Of a stretch of DNA of 64,000 nt, positions 2,211-62,277 are shown one piece after another. The position numbers and the translations under genes were made by a program. The stretch covers positions 244,406 through 308,405 of the IMG/VR virus record IMGVR_UViG_3300044712_002679; one strand, given 5' to 3'. The notes under the pieces were generated by a model. The model made no database searches and was not told where the DNA came from. It saw only the letters and a list, made by a program, of their open reading frames with translations. The DNA comes from a virus. Positions within the stretch are counted from its first letter, which is position 1; every line of letters begins with the position of its first letter.

Positions 2211-3128
2211 ATGATAACATCTATATTGCATCATGGATTAGGTAATAGATTATATCAAATAATCTATACTATTGAATTAGCTAAAAAATATAATATGAAT
2301 TATTTTTTTAGTGATTATTATACAGATAATATAGAACATAAATTTAATATTCATTATAAAGATAATATTTTTAAAAAATTGTCATTTAATTATGTAGATA
2401 AAATACCATATTTAGATAATAAATATATTTTTGATAAACATAAATTAAAACAAATTAAATCAGACTTTAAACTTAAAAAAGAAAAATTGATAAATATTGA
2501 AGATATTTTTAATTTACTAAATGATAATAATACAGTATTGAATAATGATGAAACATATGTTTTAAATTTTCCACACGACAACCCAAAATCATATTATATT
2601 GAATCTAAATATGTTGATAGATATTTTTATAACGATTTATTTATTGATAAACAAATATTAAATGATATAAAAATAAAATATAACAACAATTTTAAAAATT
2701 CTATATGTATATTAGTTAGAAGAAATGATTATTGTACAAATGAAGATTTGAAACCTAGAGTTAAAGATATACTATATTATTATAAAGGAATAAAAGAAAT
2801 AGAAAAAGAAAAACAAATTGATTATATTTATATCATATCAGATGATTTTAATTGGTGTAAAAAAAATTTAATAGATTCAAGAATAATTTATGTTGATGAT
2901 GTTGATTATAATCAATTTTATTTAGCAACATTATGTGAAAATTTTATAACTGTTGATTCAACATTTATATTTTGGCCAATTGTATTAAGTTTGAATGATA
3001 ATATAATTGTAGTAAGTGAAAAAGATTCTATACATTTTAGCTATAAAGATAAAAGTTGGAATAATGATCTAGTATGGTTTACAGATATTAAATCATTTAA
3101 AAATATATCAAAACATATAACAATATGA
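2211..3128 (+). CDS. GT11-like alpha-1,2-fucosyltransferase
   Basis: N-terminal 'HHGLGNRLYQIIYTIELAKKYN' matches fucosyltransferase motif I (G-L-G-N-Q/R-x-F/Y-Q). The start overlaps the upstream stop. Confidence 0.5.
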   Translation: MITSILHHGLGNRLYQIIYTIELAKKYNMNYFFSDYYTDNIEHKFNIHYKDNIFKKLSFNYVDKIPYLDNKYIFDKHKLKQIKSDFKLKKEKLINIEDIFNLLNDNNTVLNNDETYVLNFPHDNPKSYYIESKYVDRYFYNDLFIDKQILNDIKIKYNNNFKNSICILVRRNDYCTNEDLKPRVKDILYYYKGIKEIEKEKQIDYIYIISDDFNWCKKNLIDSRIIYVDDVDYNQFYLATLCENFITVDSTFIFWPIVLSLNDNIIVVSEKDSIHFSYKDKSWNNDLVWFTDIKSFKNISKHITI

Positions 3129-4168
3129 AAATAATAATAATTACTGGATCATTTGGATTAATTGGCAGTGAAGCTGTCAGTTTTTTTTCAAAAAAATTTG
3201 ATATTGTAATAGGTATTGATAACAATATGCGTGAATATTTCTTTGGAAAAGATGCTTCAGTTTTAAAAAATGAAAAATTATTGAAAGAAAAATATAATAA
3301 TTATATACATTTTAATACTGACATTAGAAATAAAATTGAATTAGAAAAAATATTTAAAGAATATAATACTGATATTAAATTGATAATACATACAGCAGCA
3401 CAACCATCGCATGATTGGGCTGTTAAAGAACCATTCACTGATTTTTCAATCAATGCAATAGGAACATTAAATTTATTAGAATTAACTAGACAATATTGTA
3501 CAAAATCTGTTTTTATTTATACTTCAACTAATAAAGTTTATGGTGATAATCCAAATTATTTACCATTAGTAGAATTACAAAATCGTTGGGAAATTGATTC
3601 AAAACATAAGTATAGTTTAAATGGTATTGACGAAACAATGTCAATAGATTATACAAAACATTCGTTGTTTGGTGTTTCTAAATTATCCGCAGATTTATTA
3701 TGCCAAGAATATGGTAAATATTTTAATATGAATGTTGGAATTTTTAGATGTGGTTGTTTAACTGGTGAAAATCATCAAGGTGTCCAATTACACGGATTTA
3801 TATCTTATTTTTTAAAATGTGCAATAAACAATCAAAAATATAATATTTATGGTTATAAAGGTAAACAAGTTAGAGACAATATACATAGTTTTGATTTAAT
3901 AACAGCATTTTGGCATTTTTATAATAATCCATTACTTGGTGAAGTTTTTAATATGGGTGGTGGTAGAAATAATAGTACATCAATATTAGAACTTATCGAA
4001 ATATTAAAAAATGATTTTAATATTAATATGAATTTTAATTATGTTGATATACCTAGAATTGGTGATCATATTTGGTATATTTCAGATTTTAATAAATTTC
4101 AATCAATTTATCCAAATTGGAAACTTACATATAATTTAAAAGATATTATAAAAAATATGATTAAATAA
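3125..4168 (+). CDS. NAD-dependent sugar epimerase/dehydratase (extended SDR)
   Basis: 'IITGSFGLIGSEAV' is a Rossmann GxxGxxG motif. 'YGVSKLSAD' is the YxxxK catalytic motif. Size is typical of GalE or CDP-sugar epimerases. Confidence 0.7.
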   Translation: MKIIIITGSFGLIGSEAVSFFSKKFDIVIGIDNNMREYFFGKDASVLKNEKLLKEKYNNYIHFNTDIRNKIELEKIFKEYNTDIKLIIHTAAQPSHDWAVKEPFTDFSINAIGTLNLLELTRQYCTKSVFIYTSTNKVYGDNPNYLPLVELQNRWEIDSKHKYSLNGIDETMSIDYTKHSLFGVSKLSADLLCQEYGKYFNMNVGIFRCGCLTGENHQGVQLHGFISYFLKCAINNQKYNIYGYKGKQVRDNIHSFDLITAFWHFYNNPLLGEVFNMGGGRNNSTSILELIEILKNDFNINMNFNYVDIPRIGDHIWYISDFNKFQSIYPNWKLTYNLKDIIKNMIK

Positions 4169-10702: not shown

Positions 10703-11536
10703 ATGAAAAAAAATAATACAATTGAGAACATCGGTACAATATGTAACGATACTCGTAGTTCCGTAGTAAATACAATTTACTGCACTAAAGATTATTCTAT
10801 GTTTAAAACACAAACAGGGAATAGAAGTAAAAATAACAGACACATTAATGAATTGATAAAATCTATCAATTTAGAAAATTTATTACATGCTCAACCAATA
10901 TGTGTTAATGAAAAATTTGAAATTATTGATGGTCAACATCGTTTTCATGCAGCAAAAGAAATTGGAAGTAAAATTTATTATTATTTAGTAGATGGTTTAG
11001 GTATTAAACAAACTCAACGTCTCAATTCTAATTTAAAAAATTGGAATGCTGATGATTTTATGCATAGTTTTGCAGATAATGGTAACCAAGCGTATATTGC
11101 ATACAGATTATTTCATGAACAAAATTGTGATATTATTGACCACAATTTAGCACAAGTGTTATTAGGTGGGTATAATACATATAATGGTGCATATGGTCAA
11201 TTATTTAAAGATGGAAAATTTGTTGTGAAAGATTGGTCTTTAGCGGTTGACCGAATGGAAAAACTTCGTGATATTCATCATCAACTTTTGGTTATTAAAG
11301 GTATACCAGAACGAAGAGAATGTATGTATGCGTTATTAAATATATTTAAAGATGTAAATTACAATCATTCTAGAATGTTACAAAAACTTGCAATTCATCC
11401 AAAAGACATATTGCGAATTTTGCGTAGACGTAGTGATTTTCTTGTTGAATTATGTGAAATATATAATTATCGTGCGGGTAGCGAAGAAAAAAAGTCAAAT
11501 TTAAATGCTAGATTATTAATGCTAGAAAATATTTAA
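10703..11536 (+). CDS. ParB-like nuclease (ParB N-terminal domain) protein
   Basis: 'PICVNEKFEIIDGQHRFHAAKEIG' resembles the ParB/Srx 'DGHHR' motif region. Confidence 0.45.
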   Translation: MKKNNTIENIGTICNDTRSSVVNTIYCTKDYSMFKTQTGNRSKNNRHINELIKSINLENLLHAQPICVNEKFEIIDGQHRFHAAKEIGSKIYYYLVDGLGIKQTQRLNSNLKNWNADDFMHSFADNGNQAYIAYRLFHEQNCDIIDHNLAQVLLGGYNTYNGAYGQLFKDGKFVVKDWSLAVDRMEKLRDIHHQLLVIKGIPERRECMYALLNIFKDVNYNHSRMLQKLAIHPKDILRILRRRSDFLVELCEIYNYRAGSEEKKSNLNARLLMLENI

Positions 11537-11539
11537 TTT

Positions 11540-11567
11540 AAAATGGGGAATAATTATTCCCCATTTT
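11540..11567. terminator. perfect 14-bp palindrome AAAATGGGGAATAA/TTATTCCCCATTTT between convergent genes
   Basis: Sits exactly between the stop of 10703-11536 (+) and the stop of 11572-12843 (-). Likely a bidirectional 3'-end signal. Confidence 0.55.
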
Positions 11568-11571
11568 AATT

Positions 11572-13254: not shown

Positions 13255-13536
13255 TTAAATTACATTATATTTTTTTGCTTTTTTTGCTGCCAATATTTTA
13301 TCAATATCATTAATATTATCATATATATCTTTAGGAACATTAAAAATATAACTTCCACATCTTACTAATGTTGCGTTTTTTCCATATGTTTGTTTTTTCA
13401 TACCTGAAATACTACCAGATGCTGAAAAATTTGGATATTGATGAATATCAATTTTATCACCATCTGCTACTGAACATCGCTTAACAGCATATTCAAATAA
13501 TTTATCAAAACTTTGTAAATATTTCATAATTACCAT
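13255..13536 (-). CDS. small protein of the MKY.K..E / KKYN[IV] paralogue family
   Basis: Internal start 'MKYLQSFDKLFE'. Ends 'AKKAKKYNVI'. Confidence 0.35.
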   Translation of the reverse strand: MVIMKYLQSFDKLFEYAVKRCSVADGDKIDIHQYPNFSASGSISGMKKQTYGKNATLVRCGSYIFNVPKDIYDNINDIDKILAAKKAKKYNVI

Positions 13537-14843
13537 CTTTTTTTATTGTCATCTGCACTAAAATTTGAAATTTTATTGATGTTTTTTTCGTTTGGAAGTG
13601 GATCAAAATGATATTCTTTTTTTATTTCATTTCTAGTGTGTCCCCATCTTGAATCATCCCCTTTATCATTTTTGACTGAATATAATATACCACCACGATC
13701 ATTTGTGTGCCAAACATAATATGCATTAATATGCCACAATACACCATTATCATCTAGCATATCATAAAATGCTTGTTTATTATCATGCGAAAAAGAATCT
13801 ACACATAGCGGATTATTATCAGCAATTAAATAATCTTCATCAGTAATTATAATATCATCTTTTGTGAATTTATAATTTTTTGGAATTACAATGATATATT
13901 CTTTTTCTTTTTTATTGCTTACATAATCTTCTTGATTAAATAACTCTTCTGTTAATTCAGATGATATTATATTCACTTTATCCGATTCAACACGAATAAT
14001 AAACCCATCTTTATTTGAAAAATATTTAGCAATTGGTAAACTAGATGTAAATGATAAGAATTTACCATCTGTTAATTTGTGCAAACCATTTTTTAAAATA
14101 TAATCAAAAACTAAATCATAACGAAGTTTTACAGTTTTACTATTTTTCATTTTTGTTTCAGTTGCCAATTTATTTAATTCTTCAAATTCTTTACCAAGTA
14201 CTTTTTTTGCTTTATCATACATCACACCTCTTATTCCACGATATAAATATTTTGGGATTTTTAATTTTTCTTTTTTTAATTTGTAATGGTTATAGAAACC
14301 ATATAACCAAATGTATTTAATTATATCATTTACTTTTTTTATTCCATCTTCTGTTTTTGTGGTTAACGCATTAACACCACCAAATGTAACAAATCGTGAA
14401 TCTACTTTTTTATCTGTATTTATTATTGGTTCTAAATCAGAATTTTTACGCAATATATTTAAACCATTTGCTGAATTAAAATTACCAAAAATATTTGTCC
14501 CTTGATATCCTTGTGAGGACAATATTAAAAATTGTGTTTGTGTTTTTAAATCTGGAAATATATTTGATCCGGTTTTAGGTATTTTATGTCCAATTTCTGC
14601 AATTGAATGTAAAATACTTTTTGACACAGAATCTTTCCAATTAAATATCATATTATCTTTAATTTTATGGTATATGTTTAAATCCATATCCATTAATAAA
14701 ACTAAATCATCAATATTTTTAAATCCAGTTAAGATTGCATTTTTCAATTTTAATTTAAAATCAGACCAATCAGTATATTGTATATTGTCTTTAAAATTAC
14801 CAAATTTTGATTCATTATAATGACTAAATTTTAATATCATCAA
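13530..14843 (-). CDS. putative mono-ADP-ribosyltransferase (R-S-E clade), fused to an uncharacterised C-terminal domain
   Basis: Ordered motifs are 'KYLYRGIRG' (aromatic-Arg), 'FLSFTSSLP' (STS-like) and 'EKEYIIVIP' (E-x-E followed by a hydrophobic strand, cf. Vip2 'EKEVLL'). The spacings are compatible with an ART fold. Confidence 0.4.
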   Translation of the reverse strand: MMILKFSHYNESKFGNFKDNIQYTDWSDFKLKLKNAILTGFKNIDDLVLLMDMDLNIYHKIKDNMIFNWKDSVSKSILHSIAEIGHKIPKTGSNIFPDLKTQTQFLILSSQGYQGTNIFGNFNSANGLNILRKNSDLEPIINTDKKVDSRFVTFGGVNALTTKTEDGIKKVNDIIKYIWLYGFYNHYKLKKEKLKIPKYLYRGIRGVMYDKAKKVLGKEFEELNKLATETKMKNSKTVKLRYDLVFDYILKNGLHKLTDGKFLSFTSSLPIAKYFSNKDGFIIRVESDKVNIISSELTEELFNQEDYVSNKKEKEYIIVIPKNYKFTKDDIIITDEDYLIADNNPLCVDSFSHDNKQAFYDMLDDNGVLWHINAYYVWHTNDRGGILYSVKNDKGDDSRWGHTRNEIKKEYHFDPLPNEKNINKISNFSADDNKKRW

Positions 14844-14986: not shown

Positions 14987-15340
14987 ATGAAAAATATTAA
15001 AAGTATAAATGAATTTTTGAATGAAGATATTGATAAATTTGATTTTGATCATGATTTTTCTGAAGAAGAATTGAACCAACTTGAAGATGATGTTAAAGAT
15101 ATTACAATAGAAATCACAAAAGATGATATGGATGAATATTCTGTTAATTATCAAATAGATAATATAGAAATAGAAGGTAAATTAATATCATATAATAGTG
15201 GTAGAGCTAAAGAATATAAATTTGAACCATCATTTATTGATGATGAAACAGAAGAATATTATGATGAAAATTGGGAAGATATTGAAGAAGAAATTTTAGC
15301 ATATTTTTGGGAAAATAAAAAAGAAATTGATAGTAAGTAA
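14987..15340 (+). CDS. hypothetical highly acidic protein
   Basis: The ORF is about 35% D/E. Confidence 0.35.
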   Translation: MKNIKSINEFLNEDIDKFDFDHDFSEEELNQLEDDVKDITIEITKDDMDEYSVNYQIDNIEIEGKLISYNSGRAKEYKFEPSFIDDETEEYYDENWEDIEEEILAYFWENKKEIDSK

Positions 15341-15361: not shown

Positions 15362-16246
15362 ATGAACATATTAAGTTTATTTGATGGGATGTCTTGTGGA
15401 CAAATCGCATTAAATCGAGTTGGAATTAAATATGATAAATATTTTGCATCTGAAATAGATGAAAATGGAATTCAAGTAACAATGGATAATTATCCAAACA
15501 CCACACAATTAGGTGATGTTACAAAAATAATTAGTTCAAATTTACCACAAATTGATCTTTTAATTGGTGGATCACCTTGTCAAGGGTTTTCTTTTGCTGG
15601 AAAACAATTAAATTTTAATGATCCTAGAAGTGTGTTATTTTTTGAATTTGTTCGGTTGAAGAATGAATGCAAACCTAAATATTTTCTTCTAGAAAATGTT
15701 AAAATGCGAAAAGATTTCCAAGATATTATAAGCGGTTATCTTGGTGTTGAACCAATTGAAATAAATAGTTCAACAGTTTCTGCCCAAGATCGAAAAAGAT
15801 TATATTGGACAAACATTCCAAATATTACACAACCAACAAACAAAAATATTTATCTTAAAGATGTTTTAGATATTTTTGTTGATGATAGCTTATTTTTATC
15901 TGATACAATAGCATCAAGGTATTTTACTGTGCCATGCACTATAAATAAAAATAAATCATGTGTTATTGGAAAATTGTCTAATCATCAGGGTGATAGAATA
16001 TTCGATATTAATTGTAAAGGTAGTTCACTAAGTGCTAGTGGTGGCAATAATGGTGCAGGTGGTTGTAATATTATACACGACCCAACTACAAATAAATTAA
16101 GAAAATTAAGTGTATCAGAATGTGAACGTTTACAAACTGTGCCTGAAAATTATACAAAATTAGCAAAAAAGACACAACGGTATAAAATGCTTGGCAATGG
16201 TTGGACAGTTGATGTTATTTCACATATATTTAAAAATATAATTTAA
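15362..16246 (+). CDS. DNA (cytosine-5)-methyltransferase
   Basis: N-terminal 'LSLFDGMSCG' is motif I (FxGxG). 'GGSPCQGFSFAGK' is the catalytic PCQ motif IV. 'ENV' is motif VI. C-terminal 'GNGWTV' is motif X. Confidence 0.85.
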   Translation: MNILSLFDGMSCGQIALNRVGIKYDKYFASEIDENGIQVTMDNYPNTTQLGDVTKIISSNLPQIDLLIGGSPCQGFSFAGKQLNFNDPRSVLFFEFVRLKNECKPKYFLLENVKMRKDFQDIISGYLGVEPIEINSSTVSAQDRKRLYWTNIPNITQPTNKNIYLKDVLDIFVDDSLFLSDTIASRYFTVPCTINKNKSCVIGKLSNHQGDRIFDINCKGSSLSASGGNNGAGGCNIIHDPTTNKLRKLSVSECERLQTVPENYTKLAKKTQRYKMLGNGWTVDVISHIFKNII

Positions 16247-17154
16247 TGAATGTATTAAGTCTCTTTGACGGAATGTCCTGTGGACAAATCGCACTAAATA
16301 GAATTGGTATCAAATATGATAAGTATTATGCATCAGAAATTGATAAACATGCTATTAATGTAACACAAACACATTTTCCAAATACGATACAATTGGGTGA
16401 TATTACACAAATCAAAAAATTAGATTTACCACAAATAGATTTAATGATGGGTGGATCACCATGTCAAGGTTTTTCGTTTTCTGGTAAACAATTAAATTTC
16501 AATGATCCAAGAAGTAAATTATTTTTTGAATTTGTTAGATTAAAAGATGAAATTAATCCTAAATATTGGTTATTGGAAAATGTAGTAATGAAAAAAGAAT
16601 ATGAAAATATCATTTCACAATATTTGGGTGTTGAACCAATAAAAATAAATAGTAGTTTAGTATCTGCACAAAATAGAGAAAGATTATATTGGTCAAATTT
16701 AAAAATAATTCAACCAACAGACAAAAACATAAATCTTGATGATATTTTAGAATATGATGATCAAATAAATCCTGGTGCTATTCGTGGACGAAAATTAAAC
16801 AAAGCTACAATTATTGGAAGACGATTAAATGATCGTGGTGTAAGAGATGATTATAATAAAGATATTCCTATTACACAATGTTTAGAAGTAAGGGCTACTA
16901 ACACCAATAAAAGTAATTGTCTAACAACCGTTGAAAAAGATAATGTATTAACTACAATGCCTATTGGAAGACATCCTGATGCGTTTATTAATAAATTACC
17001 ATTTAGATATTATACATTAAAAGAATACTGTAGATTACAAACCGTACCTGATGATTATTTTGATGGTATAGTATCAACAAATCAAGCAAAAAAAATGATT
17101 GGTAATGGTTGGACAGTTGATGTCATTGCACACATTTTGAAAAATATTAAATAA
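16246..17154 (+). CDS. DNA (cytosine-5)-methyltransferase, tandem paralogue of 15362-16246
   Basis: Motifs I, IV, VI and X are the same. The N-terminal half is about 75% identical. The target-recognition region differs. Its ATG overlaps the upstream stop (TAATG). Confidence 0.85.
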   Translation: MNVLSLFDGMSCGQIALNRIGIKYDKYYASEIDKHAINVTQTHFPNTIQLGDITQIKKLDLPQIDLMMGGSPCQGFSFSGKQLNFNDPRSKLFFEFVRLKDEINPKYWLLENVVMKKEYENIISQYLGVEPIKINSSLVSAQNRERLYWSNLKIIQPTDKNINLDDILEYDDQINPGAIRGRKLNKATIIGRRLNDRGVRDDYNKDIPITQCLEVRATNTNKSNCLTTVEKDNVLTTMPIGRHPDAFINKLPFRYYTLKEYCRLQTVPDDYFDGIVSTNQAKKMIGNGWTVDVIAHILKNIK

Positions 17155-17292: not shown

Positions 17293-17835
17293 TTAATATC
17301 TTTCTGGATATTTAATATAACTTTGTAATTCTCGCCAATCTATATCATCTATACCTTGATATCCTTTATTAATAAAATATTGATTAACTTCATCTTGGCT
17401 TAAATCTTTAATGTCATTAACAATATTATTAATATATCTTTTTGAAACATATTCTTTTCTTCGTATAACTGGCATTTTTTTAATGCCCATTTTCAACATT
17501 GCAATCGCTCGATGTCTACCTTCTTGTGCTGAACTATTTACTGTATAATAACAAATAGGAAATTTGTCACCTTTTTTAAAATCTTCCACATATTTATCTA
17601 CCAATTTATTATTAACTACATTTAATTCGAATTCATATGATTGCTTAAATCCTTTAGCTACTTGTTGAATATATTCTTTAGGACTAATAAAAATTAATTC
17701 TTCGACAGTTTTTTTCCATAATAAAGAATATAGTGGATTTTCATATGCCGGATAATATCTATACAGACTTTTCATATCAAAATACTGACAGCCGTCACAT
17801 ATATTATATTCATTAAATTCCAACAAATGATTCAT
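17293..17835 (-). CDS. ParB/Srx-like domain protein
   Basis: 'NSSAQEGRHRAIAMLKMG' resembles the ParB 'GxRRxxA' box. Confidence 0.3.
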   Translation of the reverse strand: MNHLLEFNEYNICDGCQYFDMKSLYRYYPAYENPLYSLLWKKTVEELIFISPKEYIQQVAKGFKQSYEFELNVVNNKLVDKYVEDFKKGDKFPICYYTVNSSAQEGRHRAIAMLKMGIKKMPVIRRKEYVSKRYINNIVNDIKDLSQDEVNQYFINKGYQGIDDIDWRELQSYIKYPERY

Positions 17836-24701: not shown

Positions 24702-24965
24702 TCATACATTTATATTATTTTTATGAAATATTTGATCAAAATTCAAATATTTATTTGCAGATATTATAAGATCATCTTTTAACATATTTTTTATATTATT
24801 TATATCAATAAATCTATTTTCTTTATCATATAAATATGTATTATAAAATGGTTTATTATCAATAATTGTCGAATATCTTATCATCGTTTTTGAACAATAT
24901 GGTGAATAATATTGTGTAATTTCATCATATTGAATTTCTGGGTATCTTTTTAAAATACCTATCAT
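24702..24965 (-). CDS. hypothetical protein
   Basis: ORF whose start overlaps the gmd stop (ATGA). Followed by a further ATGA-coupled 48-aa ORF at 24563-24705. Confidence 0.3.
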   Translation of the reverse strand: MIGILKRYPEIQYDEITQYYSPYCSKTMIRYSTIIDNKPFYNTYLYDKENRFIDINNIKNMLKDDLIISANKYLNFDQIFHKNNINV

Positions 24966-25993
24966 TAAGTTCCAATTAAACTTTTTCCACCAGTTTTTAA
25001 ATCGTGTTCCATCATAATCTTAACCAATTCTTTAAACTTCACCTTTGGTTCCCATCCTAAAATTGTACGAGCTTTTGTTGAATCACCAAGTAACAGATCT
25101 ACTTCAGATGGTCTAAAATATTTTGGATCAATTTCAATTACAACATTACCTGTATTCTTATCTATACCTTTTTCATCTACCCCACTTCCAACCCATTCGA
25201 TATCCATGTTAACATATTTACAAGCTTCTTCGATGAAATCTTTGACACTATACATTATCCCAGTAGAAAGTACAAAATCTTCTGGGGTGTCTTGTTGTAA
25301 CATTAACCACATACCATACACATAATCGGGAGAATATCCCCAATCTCTTTTTGAATATAAATTGCCTAATTTTAAAGTTTTTTGTTTTCCGTTTTTTATT
25401 TTTACTAATGCTTCAGTTACTTTCTTTGAAACAAAAGTAGACCCCCGACGTTCTGATTCATGATTAAACAATATTCCATTACTTATAAACATATCATATG
25501 ATTCTCTATAATTTTTACAAATATGGTAGGCGTAAAGTTTTGCCACACCATAAGGAGACTGTGGGTTAAATTGTGTTTTTTCAGTTTGTGGTATTTCTAA
25601 AACCTTTCCATATAATTCACTCGTACTAGCATTATAAATTTTAGATTTTAATTCCAATAAACGACAACTTTCGAGTACATTTAGGACACCTATTGCATCA
25701 ACTTGTGCAGTATATAATGGTTGTGTAAATGACACTTGAACGTGACTTTGTGCAGACAGAATATATATTTCATCAGGTTTAACTTTTAATAATATATTTT
25801 GAATAGACGATATATCAGTGATATCACCATAATATAAATGTATTTTATCATAAATATTTTCAAGTCTACCAGTGTTAAATGAACTACTTCTTCTAATCAT
25901 CCCATGTACATCATAATCTTTATCTAACAGTAATTCAGCAAGATAACTTCCATCTTGACCTGTAATTCCTAACAATAATGCTTTTTTCTTCAT
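24965..25993 (-). CDS. gmd: GDP-mannose 4,6-dehydratase
   Basis: '[42 protein letters not shown]' is nearly diagnostic for GMD. Full length is 342 aa. Confidence 0.9.
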
Positions 25994-27862: not shown

Positions 27863-30457
27863 TTACATATTTTTATTTACGATATCACATATATACATAA
27901 TATCCATACCTGTTAAATCTGGGTTATTAGGTACATATAGACCATACTTATCTACAATATCAGCAAAATCAAATGATTGTTTACCATATTTTTTTATCCA
28001 ATATGGTTGGTTTCCAATTGATCCACAGACTAATGGTCTACAATCAACACCACCATCATCTAATGCTTTTGCAATTTGTTTAATATTCGGATGAATTATA
28101 GGATATGCAAAATTTGCGATTTTACAATGTTCAAAATCTTTAATCTTCCAATAATCATTTTTGATAAATTCTTGATATAATTCATAATTCCATTGTCTAA
28201 ATATACAATTTTTTTCAATTCTGTCCAATTGATGTATTCCAATAAATGCTTGCAAATCAGTTGATCTTAAATTGAATCCTGGATAATAAAATGTATATAA
28301 ATCTTTAAAGTCATCAACATCAAATCCTTCTTTTAATTTTGATTTAAAAGGTTCATCTAAATCACGATCCCAACCATGTGCTCTTATACTTTTAAGAATA
28401 CAATACAAATCATAATCATCAGTACAGACCATCCCACCTTCTATTGTTGAATTATGTAAACATATAGGTTGCCAACCACCAACAAAATTTTCTGTATTTG
28501 GAACACAAAAATCATAAACATATTCATCATTACTATTTATTGTTTCTTTTGATCTAACACACAATAACATTAAATCATTATCGACGAATTTTTTTAATTT
28601 ATCATTATTTAAATATTCAGACTTAAACAATTTAATAAAATCACAACATTTATATGATACGTTATTTTTATTTCTTTTGGAAAATCTTTCAATTTTAAAT
28701 GTTAATTTTTTGTATGGTAATGTATTTTTTATATCAGAAACGATTATTGAATTATCTGATATTTCTACATTAGATATAATGAATTTATATTGTATTTTAT
28801 TATTTGTTTTTCTACCACATATCATTCTATTATTTTCTTTAGATTCAATAATAGAACCATTTAATCCTAACATATTAAATAAATATGAAATTTCATTTAT
28901 TAAATTTTTTGATACACTTGATACCGAAATTCTATTATCATCTACATTTGTGCCATCGCCAGCAAAATAACCATATAAAAATGATGATATATTTTCGTAA
29001 TTTGAATGAAATATAAATTTTGGTATTTGTTTATTTGATGCTCCAGATTTTATATTCAAAAAATCTCTAAAAAATATTAATAAAGTTTCAGATGATATGC
29101 AAATTGCATGGCTATGTTTATCTTCAACAATATCATCATATGATTCTAAATTAAATATTTTTTTTATAATATTTTTTACATCCTTAATATATTCAATTTC
29201 ATTTATATTAAATGAAAAACATAATCCACTTTTTTTGTATGATCCTTCGGCTAAAAAATAACCAATCAATCGACATAAATCTTCTGAAACTTCATATTTA
29301 ATTGGAATATATTTATATTTAGGTGTGTTTTTTTTAGCAATTTTTAAATTATCAGTTTCTGTTATCAAATATTCCAAGGGTAAAACCTTTCTTCTTTTCC
29401 AATTATCTTTGTTTTTATTATCTTTACTATTCCATTTGAACTTTATTTTATCTAAATCAGATTCGTTATGGTTTATTGTAAAATATGTATTTTCAGTTTT
29501 TTTACAAAAATCTAAAAAATTTAATTCTGTTATGGGGTTTGGTTGTGGAATTTTAGATGGTACTACAATATAATCACCAATATTAATATCATTTCCTTTT
29601 TTTGGTATAATGTTAAAATTTTTTGGATCATAAGAAAAAACACTATGATCTTCGGTAATTTCAACATATCTACCATTTGATAATTTTATTTTAAAAACTA
29701 TTTTGTTGTTTAGTTCGTGTTTTATTATATTTGAAGGTGATTTATATTGTGTATTATAATCATCATCGAATGTTATTATTTTTATTTTATTTACATCATA
29801 TTGATATTTATTATAGATATTTTTAATATTATCTATATTAAAAATATCATTTTCATCTAAATATGGTATTGGTGTATTAGATGACACTGACATATGATGA
29901 CCATAATAAAAGGAAAAAGAACTCATTAGACCAAATGATCCTGTTTTAATATCATTATAAAAAGAACCAATACTTTCACATGAATCTTCTAATAAAATAA
30001 TGTTATTTTGTTCACATATTTCTAAAATTTCTTTCATTTTATTAGGAAATCCTAATACGTGAACTAACATTATAACAGAAGGTTTGTGTTCTTTCACAAG
30101 TTTTTTTAGGTGATCAATATCTAATCCTAATGTTTCTTTATCACATTCACAAAGAATTGGATTAAGCCCCAATTGAATAATTGGTGAAACTGTTGTAGTC
30201 CATGACACCGCAGGAACGATTATATTTTTATTTATTAGTCTATCAGACATCAATAAACTATAAATCATTGCTAGATTTGCAGATGAACCAGAATTAAGAA
30301 AAACTGAATATTTTTTATTTTGATATTTAGAATATTTTTCTTCAAATTCTACAGTAAGCTTATTTTTAGTTAAAATAGGATTCGTTTTTAACCATTCTAT
30401 TAAAAGGTTTATATCATTTGCGTCAATTGTGTCTTTAACTAATTTAATTCGTTCCAT
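27863..30457 (-). CDS. DegT/ColD-type PLP-dependent sugar 3-dehydratase/aminotransferase, interrupted by an intein that encodes a LAGLIDADG homing endonuclease
   Basis: N-extein has the DegT fold ('...GSFGLMSSFSFYYGHHM'). C-extein is 'STIEGGMVCTDD...RAHGWDRD...GFNLRSTDLQAFIGIHQL'. The intein has block B 'EITEDHSVFS', two LAGLIDADG motifs ('LIGYFLAEGSY', 'LYGYFAGDGTN'), block G 'VYDFCVPNTENFVGGWQPICLHN' and Ser at +1. The conserved PLP lysine position reads His (verified on the DNA), as in ColD and E1 dehydratases. Confidence 0.75.
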   Translation of the reverse strand: MERIKLVKDTIDANDINLLIEWLKTNPILTKNKLTVEFEEKYSKYQNKKYSVFLNSGSSANLAMIYSLLMSDRLINKNIIVPAVSWTTTVSPIIQLGLNPILCECDKETLGLDIDHLKKLVKEHKPSVIMLVHVLGFPNKMKEILEICEQNNIILLEDSCESIGSFYNDIKTGSFGLMSSFSFYYGHHMSVSSNTPIPYLDENDIFNIDNIKNIYNKYQYDVNKIKIITFDDDYNTQYKSPSNIIKHELNNKIVFKIKLSNGRYVEITEDHSVFSYDPKNFNIIPKKGNDINIGDYIVVPSKIPQPNPITELNFLDFCKKTENTYFTINHNESDLDKIKFKWNSKDNKNKDNWKRRKVLPLEYLITETDNLKIAKKNTPKYKYIPIKYEVSEDLCRLIGYFLAEGSYKKSGLCFSFNINEIEYIKDVKNIIKKIFNLESYDDIVEDKHSHAICISSETLLIFFRDFLNIKSGASNKQIPKFIFHSNYENISSFLYGYFAGDGTNVDDNRISVSSVSKNLINEISYLFNMLGLNGSIIESKENNRMICGRKTNNKIQYKFIISNVEISDNSIIVSDIKNTLPYKKLTFKIERFSKRNKNNVSYKCCDFIKLFKSEYLNNDKLKKFVDNDLMLLCVRSKETINSNDEYVYDFCVPNTENFVGGWQPICLHNSTIEGGMVCTDDYDLYCILKSIRAHGWDRDLDEPFKSKLKEGFDVDDFKDLYTFYYPGFNLRSTDLQAFIGIHQLDRIEKNCIFRQWNYELYQEFIKNDYWKIKDFEHCKIANFAYPIIHPNIKQIAKALDDGGVDCRPLVCGSIGNQPYWIKKYGKQSFDFADIVDKYGLYVPNNPDLTGMDIMYICDIVNKNM

Positions 30458-56373: not shown

Positions 56374-57318
56374 ATGAAAAATATGAAATATACAATAAAT
56401 GATCGAACAAATTTTCCTAGAACAATAGGAGTTTATAAAATAAGTTTTACTAATAATACTGGAAAAGTTTATATTGGAAGTACTTTCAATAAATTGGGTT
56501 TTTATGAAAGATGGAGAAAACATTATAAAGAATTGTCTCAAAATAAATCACAGTTACCTGCTTTACAAAACGCAGTTAATAAATATAGTATAGATAATAT
56601 AAGATTTGAAATTTTAGAAGAATGTAAAAAAGAAGATTGTGTTAATAGAGAACAATATTATATAGATAAATATAATTCGTATAATGATGGATATAACGCT
56701 AGACCTTTCGCAGCAAACAATTTAAATAAAAAAACATCAGATGAAACTAAAGCTAAATTAAAAATCACATTTAAAAATAAACGACAATTAAGATTTGAAG
56801 AAGTTAATAATTTATATCAAAATGGTTTAGCCATTAATAACATTATGAAAAAATTAAAAATGAGTAAAAACACTATTAGTACACTTCTAAAAGAAAATAA
56901 TATTAAAGTAGAAAATAATAATCGAGGAATAAAAAAGACAGAAATATATCAATATGATTTAATTGGTAATTTTATTGAAAAATTTAATAGTCTACATTCA
57001 GTTAGCAAAAAAATGAACATTGGAACAAATGCAATTAGATTAGTAATAAATGGCAAATGTAAGCAATCAAATGGGTTTTATTATTCATATAAATATTTAG
57101 AAAAAAATGAAGTTTTAGATATATTAAATGAATTAAATAGTAAAATGAGAATACAAAAATATATTAATATTATACAAAAAGATGAATTTCAAAATATTAT
57201 TAAAATTTGGAAAGACTTGAATGAAATAAAAAATTCAGACAATATTTTTATACCAGGAAGTGTTAGTTATGCAATAAAAAATAATAAAAAATATAAAGAA
57301 TTTTATTGGGAAATATAA
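56374..57318 (+). CDS. freestanding GIY-YIG homing endonuclease with C-terminal NUMOD-like DNA-binding repeats
   Basis: 'GVYKISFTNNTGKVYIGST...ERWRKHYK...N' is the GIY-YIG catalytic core (I-TevI/Seg-like). HTH-like repeats follow. Confidence 0.8.
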   Translation: MKNMKYTINDRTNFPRTIGVYKISFTNNTGKVYIGSTFNKLGFYERWRKHYKELSQNKSQLPALQNAVNKYSIDNIRFEILEECKKEDCVNREQYYIDKYNSYNDGYNARPFAANNLNKKTSDETKAKLKITFKNKRQLRFEEVNNLYQNGLAINNIMKKLKMSKNTISTLLKENNIKVENNNRGIKKTEIYQYDLIGNFIEKFNSLHSVSKKMNIGTNAIRLVINGKCKQSNGFYYSYKYLEKNEVLDILNELNSKMRIQKYINIIQKDEFQNIIKIWKDLNEIKNSDNIFIPGSVSYAIKNNKKYKEFYWEI

Positions 57319-61211: not shown

Positions 61212-61681
61212 ATTATTTCTTCGTTATATTGTTTAAATTTTTTATAACTATCATTCAATTCATTATAATAATTTTGTTTAGCATAGTAGTTATCTGAAAT
61301 CCATTCTGGTATTTTTCCTGCACCAAATATAAATATGTCATCATATATATCATCGACAAGTCTAAAAATTCCAATAAAAAATAAAATAACACACAATATT
61401 ATGAAAAAAATTCCACCAACATTACCCAATAATATTGAACCCACACCAATAATTAATGTAATAATTTCATTTAATATACAATAAATTAAATGTATAACTA
61501 CATATAACGGTGTTATAATATCACTGTCATTTCTTTGAAGTAACCCAACAACAAATAATGCAACCAAATGAATTAATAAAATAACCAATAATATAATAAT
61601 AGCATTATCTAAATCAGTATATGTCATATCTAATTTTAATAAATGATAATTCATTATTAAATTAACTAGAAAATTTATCAT
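61208..61681 (-). CDS. multi-pass membrane protein, tandem paralogue of 60759-61211
   Basis: As for 60759-61211. Its ATG overlaps the upstream stop. Confidence 0.45.
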   Translation of the reverse strand: MINFLVNLIMNYHLLKLDMTYTDLDNAIIILLVILLIHLVALFVVGLLQRNDSDIITPLYVVIHLIYCILNEIITLIIGVGSILLGNVGGIFFIILCVILFFIGIFRLVDDIYDDIFIFGAGKIPEWISDNYYAKQNYYNELNDSYKKFKQYNEEII

Positions 61682-62277
61682 ACTATTCGGTTTTCAAGAT
61701 AAAGTTCATTATGTTTTATTTCTTGCCAAGTAGTTGGGAATTTATAATTACCCAACCAAAAATCATTATATGCTTCTTTCATTTGCAACGCACACAAATC
61801 ATATGGAAATCTACCAACACCAGTACCAAGACCACTAATTGTTACTGATTCAATTAAATTTGGATTTTCTTTATTCACTTTTCTAAGTAATTGAAATATT
61901 GCTTTTGATGCTAAATAAACATTTACTGTATTGTGGATATTGCTACCAGGAACACGCATTGTTGGTGCAGAAATAAGATATGGAACTTCGGAATTATCAG
62001 TTTCTACTAATATTGCTTGACCGACAAGAAGTTCACCATTATAATTTTTTTGTACTTCAATTTCAAGTTTTTTTGAAATTTGCCAACCAAGTCTCATTGA
62101 TATAACATAGTCTAAGGAACCGTCCATTTTGCAAAAACTGTTAGCAGGTGAAACTACACAATCCGTTGGTAATGAAAAGAAATCACCACAATGAACAATT
62201 ACATCTTCACAATCTTTAAATTGTAATTGCCAATAATCACACATTTCTTTGTTTCTGTCAATAAGTTGTATTTTCAT
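61678..62277 (-). CDS. macro-domain (ADP-ribose binding/processing) protein
   Basis: 'CGDFFSLPTDCVVSPANSFCKMDGSLDYVISMRLG' vs macro 'DIT....DAIVNAAN..L..GGGV..AI'. 'ISGLGTGVGRFPY' vs 'IAFPAISTGVYGYP'. Confidence 0.45.
   Translation of the reverse strand: MKIQLIDRNKEMCDYWQLQFKDCEDVIVHCGDFFSLPTDCVVSPANSFCKMDGSLDYVISMRLGWQISKKLEIEVQKNYNGELLVGQAILVETDNSEVPYLISAPTMRVPGSNIHNTVNVYLASKAIFQLLRKVNKENPNLIESVTISGLGTGVGRFPYDLCALQMKEAYNDFWLGNYKFPTTWQEIKHNELYLENRIV

Follow-up and report, generated by a model that had tools for sequence, protein, structure and literature searches.

The question raised by one unannotated gene in a stretch of viral DNA is whether its product is an ADP-ribosyltransferase (ART), and, if so, which molecule it would modify. 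The stretch, called the window below, comprises 64,000 nucleotides (nt) of the IMG/VR virus record IMGVR_UViG_3300044712_002679 (positions 244,406 to 308,405), and the gene lies on the minus strand of the window at 13530..14843. From a predicted structure and from conserved sequence motifs, the product is very probably an ART-fold enzyme that binds nicotinamide adenine dinucleotide (NAD+). The best explanation of the combined evidence, held with moderate confidence, is a divergent R-S-E mono-ADP-ribosyltransferase modifying arginine in a host protein; taken separately, and by analogy with characterized enzymes, protein arginine as the acceptor is plausible at somewhat below even chances.

The open reading frame and its motifs

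An open reading frame (ORF) of 437 amino acids (aa), as claimed in the earlier note, is present at 13530..14843 when counted from a TTG at 14843. The codon after this TTG is an ATG (14840), and the ORF starting there (13530..14840, with the stop codon at 13530-13532) is 436 aa long, the TTG standing one codon upstream. The 436-aa protein is identical to an ORF product recorded as P0001 on a JGI contig of 501,337 base pairs; since that record has 436 aa, ATG 14840 is the likely start. Residues are numbered from this ATG, so that E313 and E315 of the earlier note are E312 and E314 here. The product has a mass of ~50 kDa and no visible signal peptide, and its predicted location, from the sequence, is the cytoplasm.

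The translation confirms the three strings on which the proposal was built, YLYRGIRG, FLSFTSSL, and EKEYIIVIP, in the order claimed. The core of region 1, Y200-R201-G202-I203-R204 (YRGIR), is encoded at 14229..14243 (minus strand, as are the next two) and falls on predicted strand 1. Region 2, S263-F264-T265 (SFT; 14046..14054), is an S-x-T variant of the STS motif and falls on predicted strand 2 with a helix after it; in region 3, E312-K313-E314 (EKE; 13899..13907), E314 opens predicted strand 5. Of the 89 stretches in the window that run for 100 aa or more without a stop, a strict regular expression for the ordered triple matches this ORF alone. When the protein is shuffled with its composition preserved, the expression matches 1 of 20,000 shuffles (2.5% of them with a loose version). 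The expression was composed after the sequence had been viewed, and conservation is the stronger test.

Conservation within the family

The ORF had been described as otherwise orphan, which it is not. A word-indexed search yields 36 close relatives, each labeled "hypothetical", on contigs as long as 678 kb, and an exhaustive search of 1.84 billion cluster representatives yields 70 family clusters, nearly all of 380–460 aa; every one of these relatives is unannotated. These results show a genuine, small family with a fixed architecture.

In an alignment of 64 homologs, with identities down to ~20%, only seven columns are invariant: W68, S75, R201, R204, F274, G279, and E312. At least 90% of the members also have G202, S263, F264, A271, and E314. 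In region 1, both R201 and R204 occur in 64/64 sequences and position 200 is Y or F in 62/64. Region 2 has S263 in 62/64, F264 in 61/64, and T or S at position 265 in 64/64, and region 3 has E312 in 64/64 and E314 in 63/64. Two further residues in the loop before the E-x-E, D305 and S308, are nearly invariant. Some 19 of ~430 columns are conserved at 90% or more, and four pre-specified positions would all fall among them by chance with a probability of ~(19/430)^4, or ~4e-6. The putative catalytic-triad residues are among the most constrained positions of the protein.

Predicted structure

The AlphaFold2 model computed with the family alignment has, for the whole protein, a predicted local distance difference test (pLDDT) of 88.5 and a predicted template modeling score (pTM) of 0.82; for residues 160-350 alone, the values are 95.1 and 0.87. 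Both models count as confident. A central, divergent ART domain (residues ~161-345; 13806..14360, minus strand) is predicted to consist of a long helix, strand 1, a two-helix insert, and strands 2-6. In the model, the long helix 164-190 leads to strand 198-204, which carries Y200-R201-G-I-R204; the insert between strands 1 and 2 forms helices 208-228 and 233-251; strand 261-265 carries L-S263-F-T-S, with helix 268-275 behind it. After strands 279-285 and 290-294, a loop containing a short helix (299-302) connects to strand 314-318, which starts at E314, and strand 330-332 comes last.

In the structures of C3, iota, and ARTC enzymes, the R-S-E layout puts the arginine on strand 1 and the S motif on strand 2, ahead of a helix, and strand 5, which comes after the ADP-ribosylating toxin turn-turn (ARTT) loop, opens with [Q/E]-x-E. 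The order of secondary structure elements predicted here is that canonical layout. The aromatic-Arg pair Y200-R201 lies within strand 198-204, the S-x-S/T motif lies on strand 2 before a helix, with Phe instead of Thr as its middle residue, and E312-K-E314 opens strand 5 after an ARTT-like loop. The predicted structure contains the split beta-sandwich that defines the ART core fold, the feature whose absence the earlier note had named as fatal to its proposal, and the placement of the motifs on strands matching those of known R-S-E enzymes supports the triad layout of C3/iota/Vip2 type that it had put forward.

The domains on either side are specific to the family and have no detectable relatives. 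The N-terminal domain (residues ~12-160; 14361..14807, minus strand) is predicted to be mostly helical and contains the invariant W68 and S75 in the motif NWKDSVSKSxLH; neither a fold match nor a sequence match was found for it. The C-terminal domain (residues ~346-436; 13533..13805, minus strand) is predicted to be rich in beta structure (strands 356-362, 368-377, 383-391, and 424-430) and has a conserved GFDPxP as well as conserved W377, F412, P414, and P416. It possibly serves in target recognition.

Likeness to known ADP-ribosyltransferases

Only one protein of solved structure is reached by sequence. With the family profiles, the best sequence in the PDB is 2kxi_A, at E values of 0.0066 (34-sequence profile), 0.011 (ART-domain profile), and 0.082 (64-sequence profile). 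The matched fragment scores 161 bits on Pfam PF21641 "NarE" and is, for that reason, identified as the ADP-ribosyltransferase NarE of Neisseria meningitidis (PDB 2KXI). NarE is a minimal R-S-E mono-ADP-ribosyltransferase of the cholera-toxin/heat-labile-enterotoxin group. A search with the NarE fragment collected 5 proteins, and when the ART domain is compared by hhalign with an alignment of four NarE sequences, P is 5e-4 and the probability is 30%, a value limited by the thin reference profile (effective number of sequences, Neff, ~2). At relaxed thresholds, the hhalign alignment is collinear over the three motifs, LYRG with LYRGI, I-S-T-T with L-S-F-T, and the invariant E118-x-E120 with E312-x-E314. 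In it, R201 aligns with R7 of NarE, a residue needed for both the transferase and the NAD-glycohydrolase activity, the R7K mutant being inactive (PMC4440719). The two proteins differ in build and setting: NarE is a single domain of 145 aa, whereas the window protein, at 436 aa, adds an N-terminal and a C-terminal domain as well as a two-helix insert, and NarE is a bacterial toxin targeting eukaryotic cells, whereas the window gene resides in a megaphage.

Fold comparison gives Z scores of 5.3 for the mART domain of SdeA, 5.2 each for C3bot2, Tpt1, and Vis, 5.1 for Lmo0066, and 5.0 each for Certhrax, diphtheria toxin, ART2.2, HopU1, SpvB, and TreX. The C3-like and binary-toxin ARTs (C3stau2, 1OJZ; C3bot2, 1R45; C3larvin, Certhrax, Vis, SpvB, and CPILE-a; PF03496) share with the family the order of the motifs and their placement on strands 1, 2, and 5. 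In Vip2 and iota, the E-x-E is followed by hydrophobic residues, as in the window protein; C3 enzymes have Q-x-E and modify asparagine. Identities to this group are 6-20% with Z below 6, and the window family has S-F-T, not S-T-S; the window protein, unlike these toxins, comes without a secretion signal or a translocation partner.

The likeness to Alt, ModA, and ModB of phage T4 is one of setting, a stand-alone ART gene in a large lytic-type phage genome with no immunity partner. The T4 enzymes are arginine-specific and modify the alpha subunit of the host RNA polymerase and translation factors; R-S-E with E-x-E is expected of them. Their role in redirecting the host RNA polymerase has been summarized for jumbo phages (PMC7824862). 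The family is set apart from them by the negative PHROG (E ≤ 10) and tblastn searches, without direct alignment to the T4 proteins.

For the ecto-ART ART2.2 (1GXY; PF01129), HopU1 (3U0J), the SidE mART domains (5YSI, 9FGM, 5ZQ2), and the Rhs toxin TreX (8S2M), no relationship was found at the sequence level. All of them are effectors that cellular organisms secrete or inject. The SidE ART is coupled to a phosphodiesterase domain and TreX lies beside an immunity protein; no such partner is conserved in the window family. The catalytic tetrad of Tpt1 is Arg-His-Arg-Arg; the family lacks this tetrad, and with it the combination of tetrad and two-lobe architecture that marks Tpt1/KptA (9LD3), has the R-S-E triad, and is not matched by Pfam Tpt1. 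The strand-1 His and strand-2 Tyr that mark the H-Y-E clade (diphtheria toxin, exotoxin A, and the PARPs) are likewise absent.

The family is set apart by the invariant Phe of its S-x-T motif, by R204, by an insert of 55 residues, and by two conserved flanking domains. It is most likely a new, highly divergent family of the known R-S-E kind, previously unannotated.

Points that weigh against the assignment

Several results weigh against an arginine-directed ART, and the negative database searches come first. For the 64 members searched against Pfam at E ≤ 10, no ART family is among the 25 listed of 33 matched families, the matches being scattered, with no family matching more than 3 members. 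Neither NCBIfam nor PADLOC returns anything for eight diverse members, and PHROGs, searched with the window protein at E ≤ 10, returns no family and hence no phage ART family. The family is invisible to all four annotation libraries. The window protein alone also has no match in Pfam or among PDB sequences. As for the families that the earlier note had singled out for comparison, PF03496 and PF01129 do not match the window protein at E ≤ 10, and neither is among the families listed for the 64 members; the same holds for the PF21641 hidden Markov model. A tblastn search of 50,697 deposited phage genomes finds no relative, and a database search with the ART-domain profile returns one fragment of the family itself and no annotated ART.

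The sequence link to NarE is suggestive and marginal. The GC-rich branch of the family (GC, guanine plus cytosine), used alone as a profile against the PDB, does not match NarE; its weak matches to TonB and EndoIII are taken as noise. In the fold comparison, the highest Z is 5.6, and the same lists contain plainly spurious helical matches with Z of 4.3-5.1. Foldseek, one of the tools that the earlier note had suggested, here run with the full model against the PDB, finds nothing below E 0.8; the best matches (E 0.84) are fluorescent-protein fragments on the C-terminal sheet, dismissed as noise. The 55-residue two-helix insert between strands 1 and 2 and the replacement of the middle residue of STS by an invariant Phe are departures from the type. 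That R201, S263, and E314 would line one pocket is read from the topology of the model, and the sole basis for arginine specificity is the E-x-E rule of thumb.

Carrier of the gene

The GC content of the window is 19-30% per 2-kb bin, mostly ~24%. A giant eukaryotic virus was first suspected from the 24% GC, a protein like the major vault protein (MVP), an intein, and glycosylation genes, and was rejected for a megaphage because of the phage-type neighbors of the homologs, the transfer RNA (tRNA) array, and a GmhA-type SIS gene in the window. The neighborhoods of the homologs contain PhoH, an S1 protein, a CCA-adding-type nucleotidyltransferase, IS605 TnpB, and a T7-type kinase, as well as PTH2, UvsW, a fused type II topoisomerase, and Thg1; at one locus (L011), an array of 13 tRNAs lies 1.4 kb downstream from the homolog. 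The IMG/VR homologs are on contigs of 374-676 kb. Members of the Mahaphage clade are predicted to infect Bacteroidetes (PMC12607003), and the carrier of the window gene is probably a Mahaphage-like megaphage with a host among the Bacteroidota.

The profile search of genome contigs used an alignment of 8 sequences. The GC-rich branch of the family occurs in genomes of Hyphomicrobiales (Camelimonas, Bosea, and Bradyrhizobium). One divergent homolog, annotated "hypothetical", is on the 709-kb plasmid pBSY19_1 of Bosea sp. RAC05 (NZ_CP016463.1; L022/L023, 446-526 kb), where 21 tRNA genes and numerous hypothetical ones fall within the surrounding 31 kb; nearby genes code for Fic, a DNA methyltransferase, a metallophosphoesterase, and an RNA ligase. 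The replicon also encodes a type IVb pilus with a PilV shufflon, a strawberry-notch protein, topoisomerase III, and a replication initiator. The pilus together with the tRNA genes marks the replicon as a megaplasmid of conjugative type whose tRNA arrays resemble those of megaphages. The family is therefore one of very large invading replicons and not of cellular core genomes.

The window also holds other genes of note. A gene for a DegT/DnrJ-type aminotransferase (27863-30457, minus strand) is split by an intein with a LAGLIDADG homing endonuclease, and a GIY-YIG-type homing endonuclease gene (PHROG 314, E 4e-22) is found at 56374-57318 (plus strand); together they indicate that selfish elements are active in this genome. 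A protein of 813 aa (40166-42607, plus strand) has a major-vault-protein shoulder domain (E 2e-26), a Vault_3 repeat, and an SPFH/Band 7 domain; a vault-type protein is unusual in a phage genome. At the start of the window, on the plus strand, lies a family-2 glycosyltransferase fused to a radical SAM/SPASM domain (61-2208). Next come a family-11 glycosyltransferase, of the fucosyltransferase family, and an NAD-dependent epimerase (2211-4168). Farther on are a GDP-mannose dehydratase (24965-25993) and the GmhA-like SIS protein (46891-47469). The glycosyltransferases, epimerase, dehydratase, and SIS protein suggest a glycan pathway encoded by the phage.

Genomic surroundings

The ART-like gene starts a run of four co-directional minus-strand ORFs, the others coding for 93 aa (overlapping the ART-like gene by 7 nt), 123 aa, and a CarboxypepD_reg-like protein of 423 aa. 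A bidirectional terminator-like hairpin at 11538..11569 closes the run; the terminator-like sites (3, with 0.8 expected) are all at this hairpin. Matches to sigma-70-like promoters (36, with 43 in shuffles) show no excess.

The earlier note had placed the gene next to tandem DNA methyltransferases and ParB-like nucleases. The methyltransferases stand: two C5 cytosine DNA methyltransferases, 54% identical, are encoded in tandem at 15362-17154 (plus strand), the start of the second overlapping the stop of the first by a single base. The ParB-like assignments are poorly supported. The ORF at 10703-11536 has E 0.003 for ParB_N and 2e-4 for GmrSD_N, both below the Pfam cut-offs, and the one at 17293-17835 has no match. 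Upstream of the methyltransferases and divergent from the ART-like gene, a protein of 117 aa (14987-15340, plus strand) has 39 D+E and 12 K+R residues, a pI (isoelectric point) of 4.05, and no Pfam match; it could be a DNA mimic or an anti-restriction candidate.

None of 16 window neighbors recurs beside the homologs in 12 loci from other contigs, a result that counts against the genomic association made in the earlier note. A functional link to the methyltransferases, the ParB-like genes, NUDIX, the RNA ligase, or the small downstream ORFs was rejected, as the synteny is nowhere conserved. In the loci examined, no adjacent immunity or antitoxin gene is conserved, the genes downstream vary from locus to locus, and the family does not have the make-up of ART toxin-immunity modules (Tre1-Tri1, TreX-TriX, or ART-ARH).

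Three other genes relate to ADP-ribose. An ADP-ribosylglycohydrolase (PF03747, ARH/DraG) is encoded 6 kb from the GC-rich homolog P0066 (L025, 10929-11789, plus strand); it is absent from all other loci and was rejected as a partner of the family, being a one-off. An unrelated ART (PF18760, ART-PolyVal) is encoded 6.5 kb downstream from the homolog P0036 on a 68-kb contig (L002, 10166-10888, plus strand), which indicates that such phages can carry more than one ART family. In the window itself, a Macro-domain protein of 199 aa (PF01661, E 2e-10) is encoded at 61678-62277 (minus strand), 47 kb from the ART-like gene, and is a possible reader or eraser of ADP-ribose in the same genome. Macrodomains are not the usual erasers of arginine-linked ADP-ribose.

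Proposed function and alternatives

We infer NAD+ binding, transferase activity, arginine specificity, a host protein as target, and the timing of expression. The part of the protein that most likely belongs to the R-S-E clade spans residues ~195-335. By analogy with characterized R-S-E enzymes, the protein would hold NAD+ through R201 and S263, which fall on strands 1 and 2, and would use E314, the first residue of strand 5, to stabilize the oxocarbenium-like transition state during the departure of nicotinamide. As a rule of thumb, E-x-E goes with arginine acceptors in characterized enzymes; E312, two residues before E314 and in an E-x-E rather than a Q-x-E, would on that analogy favor an arginine side chain. 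The enzyme would most likely be made by, or delivered with, the invading element, because the carrier is a megaphage without a cognate immunity gene. Modification of a host protein is suggested because this is a phage gene without an immunity partner, with a product predicted to be cytoplasmic and without a visible signal peptide, and the analogy points to a parallel with Alt, ModA, and ModB of T4.

An enzyme of the same fold could instead act on a nucleic acid (tRNA, other RNA, or DNA) in the arena of translation and RNA repair, like Tpt1/KptA or the ART toxins directed at RNA or DNA. This is unlikely, and it survives best among the alternatives. Tpt1 is the top match in the domain-level fold comparison, and genes for RNA or tRNA functions recur within 10 kb of the homologs, among them the RNA ligase and NUDIX of the window and the PTH2, S1, PhoH, CCA-adding/PolyA_pol, and Thg1 genes mentioned above. 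Genes for tRNAs are near as well, in the 13-tRNA array of L011 and in the 21 tRNAs that, with an RNA ligase, surround the Bosea homolog. In the GC-rich branch, the adjoining genes include exonucleases or phosphoesterases, namely RNase_T (L020), Metallophos and an Rv2179c-like gene (L025), and Exo_endo_phos (L027). However, huge phages are full of tRNA and translation genes, so that such proximity may be due to chance, and no single neighbor is conserved. The Arg-His-Arg-Arg tetrad of Tpt1 is absent, and in the 64-member alignment no histidine of the ART domain is invariant. The isoelectric point is not conserved either (median 7.1, range 5.3-9.5), and this lack of a conserved basic character does not suggest an obligate nucleic-acid binder. 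The R-S-E triad with E-x-E is, in characterized enzymes, associated with arginine, and characterized guanine-directed ARTs have Q-x-E.

A related and slightly less likely view is that megaphages and giant conjugative plasmids with tRNA arrays share a previously unrecognized three-domain ART family that would not simply modify a protein arginine. Its enzymes would act on the machinery of translation or RNA repair (tRNA, rRNA, or an RNA end) or would take part, with the neighboring phosphoesterases and exonucleases, in a two-step pathway of ADP-ribosylation and processing.

It is improbable that the protein is mainly an NAD+ glycohydrolase, an enzyme of the ART fold without a physiological acceptor that would lower or reshape the NAD+ pool of the host, for example so as to interfere with NAD+-dependent host processes. 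The evidence from fold and motifs is identical for this activity and for an arginine-directed transferase, but the E-x-E and the conserved loop before it, with D305 and S308, are associated with acceptor recognition in ARTs. Moreover, in the model (pTM 0.82) both flanking domains, large and conserved, pack against the catalytic one, which suggests a macromolecular partner, and depletion of NAD+ would presumably hurt the NAD+-dependent steps of the phage itself.

Least probable of all is a protein that is not an enzyme, a degenerate or convergent ART-like scaffold with a structural, virion, or binding role and a coincidental motif match, since three of the seven invariant columns are predicted catalytic or NAD+-binding residues and S263 and E314 are nearly invariant (62/64 and 63/64), exactly the residues that inactive ART-like scaffolds would typically lose, and since the strict ordered motif turns up in only one of the 20,000 shuffles.

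Meaning for phage biology

Alt, ModA, and ModB of T4 are classic host-takeover enzymes, and phage ARTs have been studied in very few phages. A mono-ADP-ribosyltransferase acting on arginine in a host protein, as favored here, would extend a known principle and not overturn it, providing a new family for a tool that phages already use. The interest of the family is that it is hidden from the annotation libraries and yet conserved in the largest known phages. If the enzyme is active, NAD+-dependent modification of the host would join the megaphage toolkit, in the form of a compact enzyme with a variant S-F-T motif and two uncharacterized accessory domains. Its target could reveal what uncultivated megaphages must control in their Bacteroidota hosts.

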